NCBI GenBank assembly: GCA_046290465.1
Contig: JBKAGP010000001.1
Location: forward strand, 6,530,046-6,594,045
DNA: 64,000 nucleotides
Origin: Planctomycetota bacterium
GTDB taxonomy: Bacteria; Planctomycetota; UBA1135; UBA2386
Direction: 5' to 3'
This document shows, piece after piece, positions 54,101-60,100 of this stretch; position 1 is the stretch's first letter; each line of letters opens with the position of its first letter. The position numbers were made by a program.

Positions 54101-57100
54101 ACGATGCAGCGCAGCCGCGCGCTGGCGCTGCTCGTCGCGACTCACGACGAGAGCCTCGCCGAGGCGATCGCCCACCGAAGCCTGATCCTCAAGGAGGGCC
54201 GCCTGTGCGAAGTCTGATCGGAGCGTTGTGGTCGTGCGTGCTGCTGGTCGGCATCGCGCCGTCGCAGTCGCCGTGCACGTGGCTGCATCTCGACGGCGCC
54301 GACGCGACCGCGATCGGCGTGCTGTTCCCGAGCGGCTTCGACGACGACCCGAAGGGCCGCTCGGGGCTGGCGGCGGTGGTCGCGGCGGCGCGGCTCGAAC
54401 AGGGCCGCCGCGCCGGCGGTGCGCTGCTGGCGAGCGGCGCGCAGGTCGGGGCCGACCACGCGATCGTGTTCGCGGTGGTCGGGCGCGACGATCACCGCAA
54501 CGCGGTCGCGTTCCTCGAGGCGCTGCGCGGCGACGGCGGCGACCTCGACGACGACACGCTGGCGCTGGCGATCGCGCGCACGGCGCTGCTCGCCGACGAC
54601 GCCGAGTACCTCTATCCGGGCGACGTCATGCGCACGCGCGCCCGCCGCCGCCTCGGGGCCGGCACGGTGCTGGCCCGGCCGCCGCGCGGGGTCGCCGACG
54701 AGTGCATCGCGCTGACGCCGGCGATCGTGCGCAAACGGCTCGCCGCCGAGACCCCGGTCCGGGTCGCCGCACTCGGGGTCGTCGACCAGCGCTGGATCGA
54801 AGCGATCGGCGGGTTGCCCTGGCCGCAGCAGCCGTGCGCGGTCGCCGCGCCCCGGGTCTGCCAGCCGCCGCGCCGCGTGCCCGACCGCACCGAGGACGTC
54901 AGCGCGCGTGCCGACTCGCCGTACGTCGCGGTGGCGTTCGCCGCACCGCCGCCCGCGCAGCGGCCGGCGTTCGCGATCGGCGTCGAGATCGCGCGCGCCC
55001 GCGCGTTCCGCCGCTTCGACCTGCGCGGCCGCGAACTGTTCGCGCGCGCGCCGTTCGTCAGCTGGTCGTGGCTGCACCAGGATCCGCTGCTGATGCTGTT
55101 CCGTCGCGGCGAGGACCAGGTGCAGCTGCTGCCCGGCGAGCGACCGGCGGCGACCGTCGACGACGAGGTCGAGGCGACCCGGCGCGAACTGCAGGCGCTG
55201 CTCGAGGACCTGCGCAAGCTGCCGCCGAGCCCGGCGGAAGTCGCCACCGCCCGGGCCGCGCTGCGTGGCCAGCTGGCGCTGCCGGGGCCGGGCGAGGCTG
55301 CGCCGTGGGCCAAGGAGCCGGCGACCCTGCCCGGCCGGCTGCAGGTGTTGTTGCTGCGCGAGTACCACGGCGTCGATGTCGCGAATCTCGACGGCATCAC
55401 CCCGGAGATGGTGGCGAAGTCCCTGATCGAGACGCTGCCGGAGCAGCGCGCCAGCTGGCACGCGATGGTGCCGCGGCGGCGCGACCGGCTCGGCTACCGG
55501 CGACGGTGAAGAACGGGCGGCTGGGTTGCCGATGGGGGTAGTGGAGACTCCGCACGACCAAGCTCCGCTGCAGCCAATCGATGGGATTCATCAACGTCGC
55601 CGAGCGCACGATCAACGCCAAGCTCGTCTGCTATGGCGTTGGAGTAGGTGGCAAGACCACGAGCCTGCAGCAGGTGCACGGCATCTTCTGCCCGCGCAAC
55701 GAGGTGCAGCTGGTCTCAATCAACACCGAGGAGGAGTCGACGCTGCTGTTCGACTTCCTGCCGATCAACCTCGGCACCGTCGGCGGCTTCAAGATCCGCA
55801 TCCAGGGCTTCACCGTGCCCGGCCAGCCCAAGTACAAGCAGATGCGCAAGTACGTGCTGCAGGGGGCCGACGCGGTGGTGTTCGTCGTCGACAGCCAGCG
55901 CAGCCGTCTGGAGGAGAACGTCGAGTCGCTGCAGAGCATGCGCGAGCACCTGCGCGAGCAGCCGGGCACCTCCGAGGACATCCCGATCGTCGCGCAGTAC
56001 AACAAGCGCGACCTCGACGACATCCTGACCGAGCGCGAACTCGACCAGCACTTCTGCTTCCGCGACGACGTGACGTCGTTCCCGTCGGTCGCGACCGAGG
56101 GCCACGGCGTGTTCGAGGCGTTCGTCGAGGCGACCTGCGCGCTGGTCGAACGCAAGGTCGAGCTCTACGGGCTGACCGACGAGGAATGCGCGCCGAGCGA
56201 GGTCGCCGAGGGCGTGCGCCAGAAGCTGTGGGCGATCTGCGACGAGGTCCGCCGCGCGCGCGAGGTCGTGCCGGTCGACGAGCTGCCGCAGACGCGCCTG
56301 TTGCAGGGCGAGGATCGCCCGCAGCAGCCAGCGGACCCGGTGCCGGACGACGTGCTCGATCTGCCCGCCGACGACGGCGGCGACGACCTGGCGGAGACGG
56401 TCGAGCTGCGCGACATGGCGCCGGTGCGCGGGCCCGCCGACGAGGTCCAGCTCGACGACGGCGACGAGGAGTCGTTCGACTTCGGCTACGAGCTGCGCGA
56501 GAGCGCCGAGTCGGCGCGCGCGCCGGACGACGTGCAGAACGGCGACGAGGTGCTCAGCGACGAAGAACTCGACCTCGACCTCAGCGCCGGCGTCGTCGAC
56601 TTCGAGGAGGCGCCGGTCGAGGAGTCCGAACCGGAGCTGCTCGACAAGACCGTGCAGTCCAACCTCGAGCTCGCCGAGCGCTACGGCGAGCTGGACGAGA
56701 AGCGGCTGCAGCTCGAACGCAAGCTGCACGAGCTGGTCGACGTCGCGCAGTGCACCGTGCACGACCTCAACCGCCCGATCAGCGCGCTGCGGCTGATGCT
56801 GTCGACGCTCGACAAGGGCTACCTGGGCGAGCTCAGCGAACCACAGGGTCAGGCGATCGAGAACGGCCTGATGGCCGTGCACCAGATGGAACGGCTGGTG
56901 CGCGACCTGCTCGACAGCTCGCGCCTCGACCACGACGGCGTGCGCCTCGAGTTCACCGAGTGCGACCTGACGCTGCTGGTCGCCGACGTGCTGCGAACGC
57001 TGCGCTACGAGCTGGACGAGTACAGCCTGTTGGTGCGCGTCGAACCGCTGCCGGTGACCAGGGTCGACCAGTGGGCGCTGACCAAGGCGCTGATGAACCT

Positions 57101-60100
57101 GATCGGCAATGCGATCGCATACCGGTCCAGCGATCGCACGCCGCTGGTGCGCGTGTTCGCCGAGGACCGCGGCGAGCACTGGGCGCTGGCCGTCAGCGAC
57201 AACGGCATCGGGATTCCCGAGGCCGACCGCGAACGGCTGTTCCGTCGCTTCGAGCGCGGTTCCAACACGTCGGGCATCAGCGGCACGGGCCTCGGCCTGC
57301 ACATCGTCAAGGAGATCGTGCAGGGCCACGGCGGCACCGTCGCGTTCGACAGCGAGGTCGGCCACGGCACGACGTTCTGGCTCAACCTGCCCAAGCAGCC
57401 GGTGCTCGCACCACACTCGCCGATCAGCGACGTCGGCGAGCGCGTCGGGCTGTAGCCGGGGATAGGAGCGCGTCCATGTAGTGGACGCGCTGCCAACCGT
57501 GATCGCGGAAGCGGCGTGTACGCGTGCGGACGGGGCTTTGCCCGTAGCATGCGGGGGCGATGAAGGCCCTCTCGTTGCTGTGTGCGTTGTCCATGGTCGG
57601 CTGCGCGACCGGTCCGCAGTTCACGTCCATCCTGGAGCCCGGCGCGTTCGCAGGCTGGCACACCGCGCCGGGCGGCACGTGGACCTGGCGCGGCGACGTG
57701 CTGGTCGGCACCAGCCCGAAGAGCGAGCGCCGCCACGGCATCCTGCTCAGCGATGCGCGTTACTCGGACTTCGAGGTCCAGCTCGAGTTCCGCGTGCTCT
57801 CGGGCGACAGCGGCTGCTACTTCCGCGTCGACGAGAAGGGCGGCACGGTCGCGGTGAACGGCTTCCAGTCGGAGGTCGACACCACGCTGGAGACCGGCGG
57901 CCTCTACGAGACCGGCGGCCGCGCGTGGGTCGTCAAGCCGGATCCGCAGCGCATGCGCGAGGTCTACCAGCCCGGCGAGTGGACCTCGCTGCGGATCCGC
58001 GCGGTGGGTCGGGACGTCGACGTCTACGTCAACGGCTACCGGACGGCGTCGCTGCGAGACGATCCCGGCCGCACCGAGGGCCACCTCGGCCTGCAGCTGC
58101 ACGGCGGCCAGGACATGCACGTCGAGTTCCGCAACCTGCAGCTGCTCGACCTGAGCACGCGGTAGGTGCGGTGTCCCGGTGGCTCGTGCGGCCCCGCGGT
58201 CAGCGCAGCGCGTGCACGGCGTCGGCGAACGCCACGCCGATCTGCGCCATCGTCTTCGCGCAGCCGAGGTAGTGGTAGCCGCCGTTCGACGCGCCGCGCC
58301 GGTAGGTGGCGTCGTCCTCGGCGCCGACGATCTCGGCGCGGTACTTCGCCAGGTAGGCCTGCTGCGCCTGCTTGTCCATCGAGCCGTCGGCGTTGGGGCC
58401 GCGCTGGTTCTCGGTGCGCAGCATCCGGGCCATCTGCTGCACCTTGCCGATGCGCTGGCCGATCTCGTCGAGCTCCTGCGACCAGTAGGGGTCGGTCGGC
58501 ACCGCGGCGACGTTGCCGAGGAACTCCTGCATCGCCGCCGGCGCCGCCATCGCGTCGCGGAAGTTCTGGTGCACGGCGCGCTTCTGCCCCGCCTCGACCG
58601 GTCCGCCGACGCCCATCACGCCGATCACGAACGGCAGCTTGGGGGCGTCGAGGTCCTTGCGCACGTCGCGGATGAAGTGCGCCAGGCACTCGCTGTAGCG
58701 GTCGTAGCCGCCCGCCCGGTCGCGCGCCGGGTAGGTGCCGCGGTCGACCATGTCGTTCCATCCCTGGAACCAGACGAACCCGCCGAGCTGGTAACCCGCT
58801 TCGGCGTCGTAGTCCGGGTGGTAGGCCTTGAGGTCGGCGAGCACCTTCTGCACGTAGGCGATGGTGCTGCGGTAGTAGCGGCCCGTCTTCGCCAGCTTGT
58901 CGGCCTTGGCCTGCTCGACGCTGGGCCCCTTGCGCTTCTCGTGTCGGTGCCGCTCGGCGATCTGCGCGAGCTGCTGCTCGGAGAACGGGTAGGGGCCGGC
59001 CGACGGCGGCCGGAAGTCGGTGTGCAGCGACTTGCCGCCCCAGGCGCACTTGATCAGCAGCACCGGGCCGTCGTGCCGTTCGGCCATGCGCAGGCCGAAC
59101 GTGAACTCGGGGCCGATCTTGTCGTCGGACTGCTGCGGGTTGCGGCGCGCACCGAAGCCCGCGGTCAGCTTGCCGGTGACCTCCTGGTCGCCGTCGCGGC
59201 CGCCGGTCAGGTAGGCGATGCGCACGTCGTCGAGCACCACCGGCGCGCCGTCGTCGTCGCGCATCCTTGCCAGCAGCGGCGCGGTCTTCGGGTCGTCGCC
59301 GAGGTAGTCGAACGTCTGGACCTTGGCGTGGCCCTGCATGTTGGACTGGCCGACCAGCACGTAGACCTGCAGCTGCTGCGCGGGCAACAGCGCGCAGCAC
59401 AACGCCGCGGCGGTGGCCGCGGACACGACGGAGCGGAGACGAAGCATCGTCCGCATCGTAGCGCGCCAGATCGTGTCCCGCTGGATCGTCTCGCGGTGCC
59501 GAGCGCGCGGTGCCATCGCGACAATCGGTGTAACGCGTGCGTCCGGATCGCGCCCAGTGCCTGAGCCCCCCAAGGACAACAAGAAGGAGAAACCCATGCA
59601 CGGCAGACACGCCGTTGCCGCGGCCCTCAAGGTCGCGGTCGTCAGTTCCGTTCTGTACTCGTCGCTCGCAGCGCAGGGCACCTACGCCGAACACACCTAC
59701 GGCGGCTTCGTCAATGCGGTGTGGCTCGAGCGGATCCCGCTGATCAGCGGCGATCCCGACGGCTTCCGCGTCTGGACCGCCGAGGACGGCAGCCGGATCC
59801 GCTTCTACGACTCGGTGACCGACACCACGACCCAGATGAACGTGCTGTCGACGTCGCCGCAGACGCTGCACGACATCTACCTGGACCAGTACCCGGGCAC
59901 CGGCGTCGAGGCGCTGTTCGGCGTCGCGGTCGGCACCGGCGGCGAGGCCGTCTGGTGGGACAGCCTCGGCCACACCAACTGGAAGCCGTTCACGACGCCG
60001 CCGGCACCCGGCAAGGAGCTGTGGGCGTGCGCGGTCGAACACGAGGCGACCGGCACCACCATCTGGGTCAGCGGCGAGGACCACCTGCTGAAGATCTCGC

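Follow-up and report, generated by a model that had tools for sequence, protein, structure and literature searches.

The analysed window comprises 64,000 nucleotides of contig JBKAGP010000001.1 from a Planctomycetota bacterium of the order UBA1135 (genome G000). It contains a gene for a 624-residue protein in which an MglA-like G domain is joined to a histidine kinase (Table 1). Besides the two kinase domains, Pfam matched the family Arf at residues 63-159. Public runs X2 and X3 each provided one contig covering the entire gene without a gap, so the fusion gene is no assembly chimera. GC3 was 0.86-1.0 along the gene. The highest 19-residue Kyte-Doolittle value was 1.14, and no hydrophobic stretch, membrane segment or other input domain was found in the protein by hydropathy and Pfam. 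A preliminary description of this DNA had proposed a cytoplasmic chain with GTPase and C-terminal kinase in one frame, joined by an acidic linker, and the frame, the domains and the linker were borne out; Asp and Glu make up 34% of residues 231-352.

Table 1. Features of the fusion locus and the candidate receiver (window positions unless marked as contig positions).
Feature	Position	Strand	Basis
ABC ATPase, two ATPase domains, upstream neighbour, kept in family f1 only	52853..54217	+	Pfam, locus comparison
Upstream neighbour, weak inactive M16 peptidase domain in orthologues, f1 only, start uncertain	54207..55509	+	Pfam of orthologues
Fusion gene (624 aa): MglA-like G domain, helix, acidic linker, conserved helix/coiled coil, HisKA, HATPase_c	55581..57455	+	Pfam, models, spanning contigs
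MglA-type G domain, residues 1-196	55581..56168	+	E 5e-45 to M. xanthus MglA (residues 1-189)
P-loop G1, residues 19-27	55635..55661	+	Gly19, Gly21, Gly24, Lys25, Thr26 invariant, 43/43 rows
Ser53, where MglA has its intrinsic arginine finger (Arg53); invariant Thr54 next	55737..55739	+	Alignments
Switch II/G3 motif TVPGQ, residues 78-82; catalytic Gln82 invariant	55812..55826	+	Alignment
Guanine-specificity motif G4 NKRD, residues 141-144	56001..56012	+	Alignment
Extra helix behind G domain, residues 205-227	56193..56261	+	AlphaFold2 models, pLDDT 87-94 per block
Acidic linker, predicted disordered, residues 231-349	56271..56627	+	Composition, alignment, models
Short acidic linker motif, residues 323-334, core L-S-D-E-E-L	56547..56582	+	Family f1 only
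Conserved helix (351-372, motif LL..AV.SN.E.A) and coiled coil into kinase	56631..56756	+	Models, profile
HisKA dimerisation/phospho-acceptor domain, residues 393-451	56757..56933	+	PF00512, E 1.8e-9
His394, H-box HDLNRP	56760-56762	+	His394, Asp395, Pro399 invariant, 43 rows
HATPase_c catalytic domain, residues 496-606; N, G1, F, G2 boxes	57066..57398	+	PF02518, E 4.5e-27
Orphan single-domain receiver, operon with RsbW-like kinase/SpoIIE phosphatase (/STAS)	contig 360200-360568		Neighbourhood, profile

Orthologous G domains were present in 54 of the 151 genomes sampled from the order, in the families f1 (40/43, G000 counted in), f3 (3/3) and f7 (11/11); three families had also been named before. 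The frame also reached the kinase and its phospho-acceptor His, as had been claimed, in 52 of the 54; in L051 it ends at the contig end, and L054 has two overlapping frames. Mean identity among orthologues was 75% for the G domain, 61-62% for the kinase domains and 18% for the linker.

Over residues 1-189 the previously stated 45% identity to Myxococcus xanthus MglA was reproduced (85/189, counted by hand in the alignment). The model of an orthologue fragment had the MglA fold with its beta-0 strand (5ymx_A, Z 25.3, rmsd 3.1, 197 residues; next fold Z 17.4). With the Group 1 MglA proteins of M. xanthus and Thermus thermophilus the domain shares the fold, the numbering to about residue 160, TVPGQ, Thr54, Asp58, Gln82 and NKxD. 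The Group 1 motifs G1 GxxxxGK[T/S], G2 Thr, G3 TVPGQ and G4 [NT]KxD were invariant in 43/43 rows, and from these motifs the domain would be expected to bind GTP and GDP. In contrast to Group 1, in all members of which the arginine finger is conserved (PMC4316618), it lacks this residue, is fused to a kinase and has no mglB beside it. Residue 53 was Ser in 33, Ala in 19 and Gln in 2 of the 54 genomes, and none of 120 database proteins had Arg there (Ser 115, Gln 3, Ala 2). The earlier claim that the MglA switch motif is kept was therefore correct for the P-loop, Thr54, TVPGQ and NKxD but not for Arg53. Group 1 was defined by a single domain of 150-240 residues, typically with mglB within four genes, although orphans exist (PMC4316618); the fusion protein, with 624 residues and kinase domains, lies outside this size range, and mglB was absent within four genes of it. 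The separate mglA-mglB locus at 2.18 Mb in G000 was confirmed, and in the tree the fusion G domain was not sister to the MglA of G000 itself.

Loss of Arg53 in MglA lowers intrinsic and MglB-stimulated hydrolysis, while the R53A protein still binds MglB (PMC3199381). As Arg53 is absent, the fusion domain is probably no ordinary cycling MglA, although its place in the chain fits the sensor position proposed for it. Hydrolysis need not stop, because MglA Groups 2-5 also lack the Arg and one of these proteins has measured GTPase activity (PMC4316618). In the lineage the loss of Arg53 is fixed together with several further substitutions, which would suit a G domain that is a relic or a purely structural scaffold of an ordinary orphan kinase. 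This is highly improbable, since the G domain is the best-conserved part of the protein and its nucleotide-binding motifs are invariant across three families.

In the HATPase_c domain N506, N510, D540, G542, G544, F557, G568, G570 and G572 were invariant. The best structural match of the kinase core was HK853, and the DHp His, all CA boxes and the signalling helix are common to the fusion and soluble HisKA kinases of the HK853/EnvZ type; in the fusion the G domain occupies the input position. The core of this lineage clustered with other HD-type kinases (support 94) and separately from the GAF-form cores. The phosphatase motif of HisKA kinases has Thr or Asn at H+4. This position was Arg or Lys in 51 of 52 orthologues, so the fusion protein may act as a kinase but lack this phosphatase activity.

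Residues 186-225 had a mean identity of 47% among orthologues, and the linker varied from 55 to 216 residues. The short acidic motif, the pattern of which was picked after inspecting the linkers, occurred in 32 of 39 f1 linkers, against 0.9 expected from shuffles, and in 0 of 73 others; it is similar to the helix at the C terminus of M. xanthus MglB. A profile of the conserved helix scored 43 bits at the fusion in G000 (next match 7.3) and matched 44 of 80 genome-scan loci, all with a kinase or kinase-like tail, while no stand-alone or tail-only MglA among the 80 loci was matched. Nearly all members of the wider family described below have this helix. In longer family members the helix precedes the GAF or PAS domain, and it stays beside the G domain despite such insertions or loss of the His. 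Because the helix travels with the G domain, the two together look like a portable input module. The orthologue fragment model (324 residues, 226 of them G domain and extra helix), which placed a linker strand in a sheet, had a pTM of 0.80, an indirect sign of docking at most. Complex prediction with residues 1-245, two copies of residues 346-612 and GTP/Mg gave 0.43 against 0.23 for the best control, a value that the tool rates more often wrong than right; contact agreement between runs was at least 85% and partner pLDDT at least 81. Of 157 solved pairs 116 attained this score mark, as did 2 of 215 mismatched ones; at 0.60 or below, only 18 solved pairs and both mismatches did so. The models thus weakly suggest that the G module docks onto the conserved helix.

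We give a probability of about one half to the reading that the protein is a soluble dimeric histidine kinase with a portable MglA-type G-protein input module, the nucleotide state of which sets kinase output. The module would comprise the MglA-like domain, the extra helix and the conserved helix that starts the signalling coiled coil. With the arginine finger lost, hydrolysis would be slow and the usual switch-off by MglB absent, and the G domain would stay GTP-bound until the absent charge is provided by a partner or the domain is reset by exchange. Folding back over the linker, which is flexible, the module may reach the conserved helix; through the coiled coil the kinase would then respond to the nucleotide state of the module. 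His394 would then autophosphorylate and pass its phosphate to a receiver encoded elsewhere.

Of the two upstream genes, the one next to the fusion had no Pfam match in its own product; Peptidase_M16_C was matched in two orthologues (E 1e-5 and 6e-4). Both genes were beside the fusion at 27 of 27 f1 loci, and a HEAT-repeat gene was at most two genes away at 11 of 11 f7 loci. The saltatorellin (actin) gene previously noted beside the fusion in a relative is real but was found at only 2 of 41 mapped loci (L037 and L040), both in one genus, a third genome of which has no upstream DNA at the fusion. In G000 itself about 4.88 Mb, in linear coordinates, separate the actin gene from the fusion. A functional link to saltatorellin was not supported, because the neighbour differs between f1, f7 and this single genus. 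The only two Robl_LC7 matches in G000 were both at 2.18 Mb, and no roadblock gene was found adjoining any mapped fusion or among the conserved neighbours scanned.

The absence of an adjoining roadblock gene also counts against a different role, in which the GTP-locked MglA domain would leave kinase activity alone and, through MglA partners such as MglB/roadblock, TPR or PATAN/DUF4388 proteins, park an active kinase at the pole and so create a phosphorylation gradient. In addition, Phe56 of the MglB-binding strand is Leu or Met in 43 of 43 rows, and a plain tether would not need a conserved helix travelling with the G domain. Polar targeting of this kind is unlikely, although MglA R53A complements motility and forms polar or oscillating clusters (PMC3199381) and Phe57, Asp58 and Phe59 are invariant in the 43 rows. 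Roadblock genes are also present elsewhere in 34 of 36 genomes of the wider family described below, DUF4388 genes adjoin the fusion in several Acidobacteriota and occur in the mglA locus of G000, and a long flexible linker would suit a tether.

The preliminary description had placed the fusion in the order UBA1135, but a wider family was found in other Planctomycetota and in Acidobacteriota, including the cultured Holophaga and Geothrix. By MglB identity, fusion families of other orders are as close to G000 as family f10 of the order sample. No description of such fusions was found in the literature, and the family is apparently undescribed, perhaps because 39 MglA-clade sequences of more than 240 residues were excluded from the standard survey of Ras-like GTPases in prokaryotes (PMC4316618). 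Its members have GAF/PAS inserts, mostly an intact Arg53 (63 of 70 rows) and at least two kinase cores. When the His was judged at its aligned column, 29 of the 70 rows lacked it and had Arg53, 7 lacked Arg53 and had the His, and none lacked both. Holophaga foetida DSM 6591 and Geothrix fermentans DSM 14018 carry a His-less PAS-receiver form. With 29 rows without the His, phosphotransfer is not the universal output of the family, and as Arg53 is kept in these forms, their GTPase would be an intact enzyme. This distribution would fit a reversed flow, with the kinase half and any GAF/PAS domain as input and the G domain as output, exchange or hydrolysis being steered by kinase conformation or phosphorylation. 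The conservon model in the available part of PMC13343842 likewise sets the kinase upstream of the GTPase CvnD, and the f1 linker motif resembles the exchange-promoting tail of MglB. In the protein studied here, however, the kinase is intact, the GTPase is crippled and no sensor domain feeds the kinase; moreover, Lys181 and Lys185 of MglA, which bind the MglB tail (PMC6785124), are replaced at the corresponding positions. We therefore consider reversed flow quite unlikely here.

In the preferred reading, with the G domain as input, a receiver is required, and the nearest of 91 receiver matches in G000 was 96 kb from the fusion. The preliminary description had identified no cognate response regulator; the orphan receiver of Table 1 can now be named as the best candidate partner, a tentative lead weakened by its control. 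In the Acidobacteriota L128 and L150 one gene run reads SpoIIE, receiver, small gene, fusion, (RsbW) and further on STAS, and the best or second-best G000 match of these receivers was the receiver behind the RsbW/SpoIIE gene. Partner specificity may have changed, because the L128 and L150 fusions carry another kinase core. Of the 54 fusion genomes in the order sample 53 had the candidate, and of the 25 in the phylum sample 24 had it. It also occurred where no fusion was detectable, in 6 of the 59 and 8 of the 32 genomes that carry it. It was not found in f2, f5, f6, f9 and f10 (0/90), which also lack the fusion. The order-level distribution of a control receiver was almost identical (f1 42/42, f3 3/3, f7 4/11 at threshold, none in f2, f5, f9 and f10), so kinship explains much of this co-occurrence.

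The candidate output operon has a SpoIIE phosphatase, an RsbW-like HATPase_c_2 protein and, in several genomes, STAS; no sigma factor was found in it. The SpoIIE, RsbW-like and STAS genes are shared with the RsbU/RsbV/RsbW switch of Bacillus subtilis sigma B as outlined in the accessible portion of PMC12143880, whereas here a stand-alone receiver lies behind the phosphatase, the sigma factor is missing and the link to the fusion is drawn from genomic context. Through the orphan receiver, the switch would feed into an output of the partner-switching, sigma-factor type. An operon of this stress-response type would also suit a G domain that, free of GAP control, reports the GTP/GDP ratio (or ppGpp) as an energy sensor, as would the lost arginine finger with every binding motif kept and the relA/spoT genes two or three genes upstream of the fusion at 4 Vicinamibacteria-type loci. 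Such sensing is very unlikely, as Gly21 and Gln82, which are required for hydrolysis, remain invariant, and the fusions near spoT belong to a single lineage with Arg53 and a His-less kinase.

The actinobacterial conservons (AGPS), as far as the cited excerpts describe them, also combine a histidine kinase with an MglA-family GTPase lacking the arginine finger, again with no response regulator next to them (PMC4316618, PMC13343842). They consist of separate operon proteins, the kinase CvnA, the roadblock protein CvnB, CvnC and the Group 2 MglA CvnD, with Group 2 motifs (GTPGQ, altered G4) and a membrane kinase of its own clade, whereas in the fusion a single soluble chain combines Group 1 motifs (TVPGQ, NKRD) with a standard HisKA core. 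At the fusion loci scanned, neither a roadblock gene nor CvnC was found as a neighbour. Roco proteins (Roc-COR) likewise have a Ras-like G domain within a multidomain signalling protein, and eukaryotic members include a kinase. The fusion differs from them in its MglA-type domain and histidine kinase, and no COR or LRR family matched it (Pfam, E 0.01). Roc belongs to the Rup clade and requires COR/LRR (PMC4316618); COR comes after the Roc domain, and LRRs are usually N-terminal.

MglA proteins are known to work as polarity switches that stand alone, and the fusion could wire G-protein signalling directly into two-component signalling. A bolder and rather improbable extension would be a new sensor class, in which a transplantable module of MglA domain and docking helix gates kinases in cis. 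The present lineage would then use an arginine in trans, as Ras does, or a GTP-state latch, together with a mimic of the MglB tail and a stand-alone receiver leading to STAS/RsbW/SpoIIE. If true, an MglA-type switch would for the first time be linked to gene regulation directly, through a single protein; the available text of PMC13343842 states that MglA in Myxococcus and Bdellovibrio is not thought to control gene expression. One chain with both GTPase and kinase makes their coupling testable in one tube. Natural controls exist within the family, with and without the Arg, the His and GAF/PAS domains, and some family members come from cultured organisms.

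The gene was read as one open frame that joins an MglA-like GTPase to a histidine kinase in a single chain, as the preliminary description had proposed (see the table). An assembly chimera or a chance overlap of frames was rejected; contigs from two public runs (X2 and X3) covered the whole gene without a gap. GC3 was 0.86-1.0 throughout the gene, no membrane-like stretch was found in the protein, and none of the best 25 NCBIfam equivalogs reached its cut-off. The scan for promoters and terminators gave 0 of each. One leaf-litter RNA run yielded a contig of 202 bases that lies within the gene, with 1 difference and a share of words of 0.05; this match is no evidence of transcription.

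Positions of the fusion gene, its domains and other features discussed in the text
Feature	Position	Strand	Remark
Whole fusion gene	window 55581-57455	+	single open frame, 624 residues
Arf	residues 63-159		Pfam
HisKA	residues 393-451		Pfam, E 1.8e-9
HATPase_c	residues 496-606		Pfam, E 4.5e-27
GC-rich repeat, three copies	window 57463-57544, 44223-44310, 61786-61872		~85 bases, hairpins
Ordinary mglA	L071:9152-10159, contig ~2.177 Mb	-	
RsbW-like HATPase_c_2 + SpoIIE	L184:8177-10201, contig 358176-360200	+	one 675-aa frame
Candidate receiver	contig 360200-360568		123 aa
Atypical receiver-like protein	L229:83-505, contig 1450282-1450704	-	
Split fusion orthologue	L054:9287-11252		genome G135
MglA-like + PF00027 protein	L139:7001-8191		

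M. xanthus MglA aligned with residues 1-189 of the fusion at E 5e-45, and the 85 identities counted from the alignment agree with the 45% reported earlier. As the alignment is gapless before residue 161, MglA numbering applies. The linker (231-352) contained 34% acidic residues. In the full-length AlphaFold2 model (pLDDT 75, pTM 0.44) the G domain is followed by an extra helix (205-227), a disordered part (234-349), a single long helix (351-411) that continues into the DHp, and finally the CA domain; Foldseek returned matches to HK853 and MglA.

Gly19, Gly21, Gly24, Lys25, Thr26, Thr54, Phe57, Asp58, Phe59, TVPGQ and N-K-x-D were invariant in the 43 aligned orthologues. The G domain might be a sensor of GTP/GDP or ppGpp, a reading that we consider improbable, and it is very improbable that a domain with these residues is a passenger. 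The switch motif had been described as kept; TVPGQ and Thr54 bear this out, whereas the catalytic Arg53, the intrinsic arginine finger, is lost. Position 53 was Ser (33), Ala (19) or Gln (2) in 54 of 54 order genomes with the fusion, and Ser (115), Gln (3) or Ala (2) among the 120 database matches listed, while the ordinary MglA of the same genome retains Arg. According to PMC3199381, R53A lowers intrinsic and GAP-stimulated hydrolysis of MglA and retains MglB binding, and its in vivo behaviour is that of a GTPase-negative allele. The survey PMC4316618 gives Arg in every Group 1 member and Thr in Groups 2-5; sequences above 240 aa were left out, and 449 of 488 MglA-clade sequences were retained.

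In the kinase half, His394-Asp395 and every CA box were kept, and residue H+4 was Arg in 35, Lys in 16 and Ser in 1 of the orthologues. The phosphatase motif of histidine kinases has Thr or Asn at H+4, from which the fusion, judged by its sequence, differs. Activation by K+ in place of Arg was considered and set aside, as the P-loop is without Asn at the position typical of the K+-activated GTPase class.

Our preferred reading, to which we assign a probability of about 0.5, is that a nucleotide-gated G module would control the kinase in cis via the conserved helix, that its GTP hydrolysis would be slow or dependent on an outside arginine, and that His394 would signal to a receiver encoded elsewhere. 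Sequence, conservation, family breadth and neighbourhoods were observed; from them we infer every activity named here.

For docking of the G module, an orthologue fragment (L032, residues 1-324, 105 rows) was modelled with a pTM of 0.80, helix blocks at pLDDT 79-95 and linker strand 236-239 within a sheet. The G domain and extra helix make up 70% of this fragment, so that at this pTM more than these two parts seems to be placed in the model, which is an indirect hint of docking. The fold search with the fragment covered only residues 5-227 and is hence silent on the conserved helix. A complex prediction of residues 1-245 with two copies of 346-612, GTP and Mg scored 0.43 against 0.23 for the best control, with a contact agreement of at least 85% and a partner pLDDT of at least 81, and lends weak support to the predicted docking onto the kinase. 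Of the solved pairs, 116 of 157 reached the mark for such scores, as did 2 of 215 mismatched pairs; 18 solved pairs and both mismatches did so with a score of 0.60 or below. A covariation analysis of the G domain against the helix (effective depth 47) gave top pairs unlike G-domain contacts and was discarded as uninformative. A linker motif of the type [ILVFM][ST]D[DE][DE]L, picked after looking at the sequences, occurred in 32 of 39 genomes of family f1, where 0.9 would be expected, and was absent from all 73 others. Its sequence is similar to the I-S-D-D-D-I tail of M. xanthus MglB, which according to PMC6785124 occupies an allosteric pocket and helps exchange. However, the MglA lysines contacting that tail are not kept in the fusion, and capped acidic helices of this kind are common.

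The G-domain query matched in 105 of the 151 genomes of the order sample, and 54 of the 151, including the genome studied, carried a close fusion-type match (61-100% identity). These belonged to families f1, f3 and f7, which upholds the claim of a fusion in three families; f2, f4, f5, f8 and f10 had ordinary MglA only, and f6 and f9 gave no match to this query. In 52 of the 54 the kinase with its His follows in the same frame. One further frame (L051) is cut by a contig end, and the split orthologue consists of two overlapping frames, which may reflect a sequencing slip or a pseudogene. The protein database held 601 matches of 343-1092 aa. Arf, HisKA and HATPase_c were present in 118 of the 120 listed (the window's own aside), the other two being short or partial; those listed were labelled Planctomycetota and named MglA or 'histidine kinase/SRP receptor beta'. 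In the phylum sample the fusion occurred in at least 25 of 401 genomes, including two partial matches and one from follow-up, a lower bound with at most 2 candidates scored per genome.

A profile search against 1.84 billion cluster representatives extended the family by many proteins that match at the N-terminus. Among 48 proteins hand-picked from the best 150, 39 had an N-terminal G domain and HATPase_c, most of them with GAF or PAS in between and some with a receiver. From the genome scan 80 of at least 599 loci were kept and 42 of the 80 domain-scanned. Among the loci listed, fusion-like genes occurred in Planctomycetota, Aminicenantes and Acidobacteriota (Holophagae, including H. foetida DSM 6591 and G. 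fermentans DSM 14018, Thermoanaerobaculia, Vicinamibacteria and Polarisedimenticolia). Directly after the linker nearly all members share the helix LL..AV.SN.E.A; it precedes the sensor in GAF/PAS forms and so belongs with the G domain, not with the DHp. Scores above 12 bits with the profile of this helix came from 44 of the 80 kept loci and from none of the stand-alone or tail-only MglAs. The genome studied gave 43 bits, against 7.3 bits for the next match, and two phylum fusions (L165, L171) escaped detection by the profile.

In 70 wider-family rows, related to each other and scored for His in one alignment column, Arg and His were both kept in 34, His was missing in 29, Arg in 7 and both in none. 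The converse arrangement, in which the kinase controls the GTPase, is to our mind quite unlikely. Hybrids of MglA, PAS, kinase core and receiver occur in L080, L113, L118 and other Holophagaceae loci, for which cultured strains exist; the phospho-acceptor His column is occupied by Asn or some other residue, and the receiver domain scores well.

A quick G-domain tree (18 of the 43 orthologues kept, 23 of these rows and 2 others dropped as near-copies) placed the order's fusion type in one group (support 100) and 28 of 30 non-kinase MglAs, including that of the genome studied, on one side (87). Judging from these sequences, the fusions may have a single origin; that the fusion arose recently by duplication of the mglA of this genome is not supported by the tree. 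In a FastTree tree of kinase cores the order's fusion type and five Arg-less, GAF-less relatives joined other HD-type kinases (94), and the cores of most GAF forms fell apart from them, so that the G module is carried on at least two kinase cores.

Other MglA forms were also seen. Stand-alone MglAs of phylum family f20 (L178, L179, L181, L183; 221-224 aa, Arg53 kept) stop right after the extra helix, with no kinase gene seen within 1.5 kb, and are possibly a split or reduced form of the fusion. MglAs with acidic or Pro-rich tails of 300-500 residues and without a known second domain came from Nitrospirota, Moduliflexota, Latescibacterota and Myxococcota (L092, L106, L121, L129, L133, L146, L148). 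One further fusion type joins an MglA-like domain to a cyclic-nucleotide-binding domain (PF00027, E 4e-22).

Neighbourhoods were mapped at 41 loci with a rough gene caller, and the upstream genes differ by family. An ABC ATPase and an M16-like gene (the latter in 27/27 loci) precede the fusion in f1, and sigma factor, TolC and HEAT-repeat genes (HEAT in 11/11) in f7. The two f3 loci with upstream DNA had a Ser/Thr kinase, a P-loop protein, a coiled-coil protein and actin. The actin gene reported beside the fusion does adjoin it in one genus but not elsewhere; in the genome studied the actin operon (63% identity) lies at 1.706 Mb, about 4.88 Mb away, and the link to saltatorellin was rejected. 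The accessible text of 10.1101/817700 names saltatorellin and never mentions MglA or a GTPase. An address-tag role of the G domain is, in our estimate, unlikely. The sigma factors encoded near the fusion in f7, in two f1 genomes and in L128 are no more than 25-38% alike from lineage to lineage and thus not one conserved partner.

No roadblock or receiver gene was a conserved neighbour in the 41 loci. The separate MglA-MglB locus was found as described: the neighbours of mglA there are mglB (contig 2176129-2176644), a second roadblock gene, and genes for a TPR and a DUF4388-TPR-PQQ protein, and both Robl_LC7 matches of the genome are at this locus. This MglA has an Ala/Pro/basic tail whose last segment is hydrophobic (KD 2.37) and probably spans the membrane.

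The genome has 91 receiver matches, the nearest 96 kb from the fusion. In two Acidobacteriota loci (L128, L150) GAF-SpoIIE, a single-domain receiver and a 73-aa gene precede the fusion, and RsbW-like (L128) and STAS genes follow. Matches to these operon genes in the genome studied cluster at contig 358-360.6 kb, where the RsbW-like/SpoIIE frame is followed at once by the candidate receiver. This receiver ranks first among the matches to the L150 receiver and second among those to the receiver of L128. Its helix-1 pattern is common to both, and its acidic pocket and phospho-Asp were kept in 44/44 loci read. It occurs in 59/151 order genomes, including 53/54 fusion carriers and 0/90 genomes of f2, f5, f6, f9 and f10, and in 32/401 phylum genomes, including 24 of the at least 25 carriers. 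SpoIIE precedes it in 8 of 10 widened loci from other families; RsbW-like and STAS genes are present in several of the 10, and a kinase gene in none.

Several findings count against partnership. The receiver occurs without a detectable fusion in 6 order and 8 phylum genomes, and the distribution of a control receiver over the order is similar, though at a looser threshold this control appears in f2 (4/4) and f5 (2/2), both without the fusion, and in 0/5 of f43, mostly with it. By MglB identity, the fusion families outside the order are as close to the genome studied as f10 is. Only 10 of 36 wider-family genomes match the candidate at E 1e-26, 3 strongly, and the Acidobacteriota operon fusions have the other kinase core. 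A second control (f1 only, 34/42) was uninformative. We regard this receiver as a tentative and rather doubtful partner of the kinase. The RsbW-like and SpoIIE parts are two genes in L235, L236, L240, L242 and L243; their single frame in the genome studied may be a true fusion or a sequence slip. The atypical receiver-like protein lacks the usual acidic pocket and is conserved in f1 (42/42) and f3 (3/3), with no kinase within 170 kb.

By analogy, the fusion might act as a HisKA kinase that bears a Group 1 MglA domain. It passes the kinase motif tests, but differs from Group 1 MglA in arginine finger, size and mglB coupling; it is neither a conservon (PMC13343842) nor a Roco protein. No description of an MglA-kinase fusion was found in the literature searched (subscription journals and bioRxiv supplements aside), by word search in the main text and two of three supplements of PMC4316618, or in the accessible text of 10.1101/817700 and PMC11032199. 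The fusion is real, conserved and undescribed in the searchable literature; new are an architecture built from known domains and a lineage-wide catalytic change.

The first repeat copy in the table lies directly after the fusion stop codon. The genome has 165 matches to this repeat, 153 of them of at least 60 bases. In the X2 and X3 contigs 165 other letters replace the copy after the stop codon, so this stretch varies between strains.
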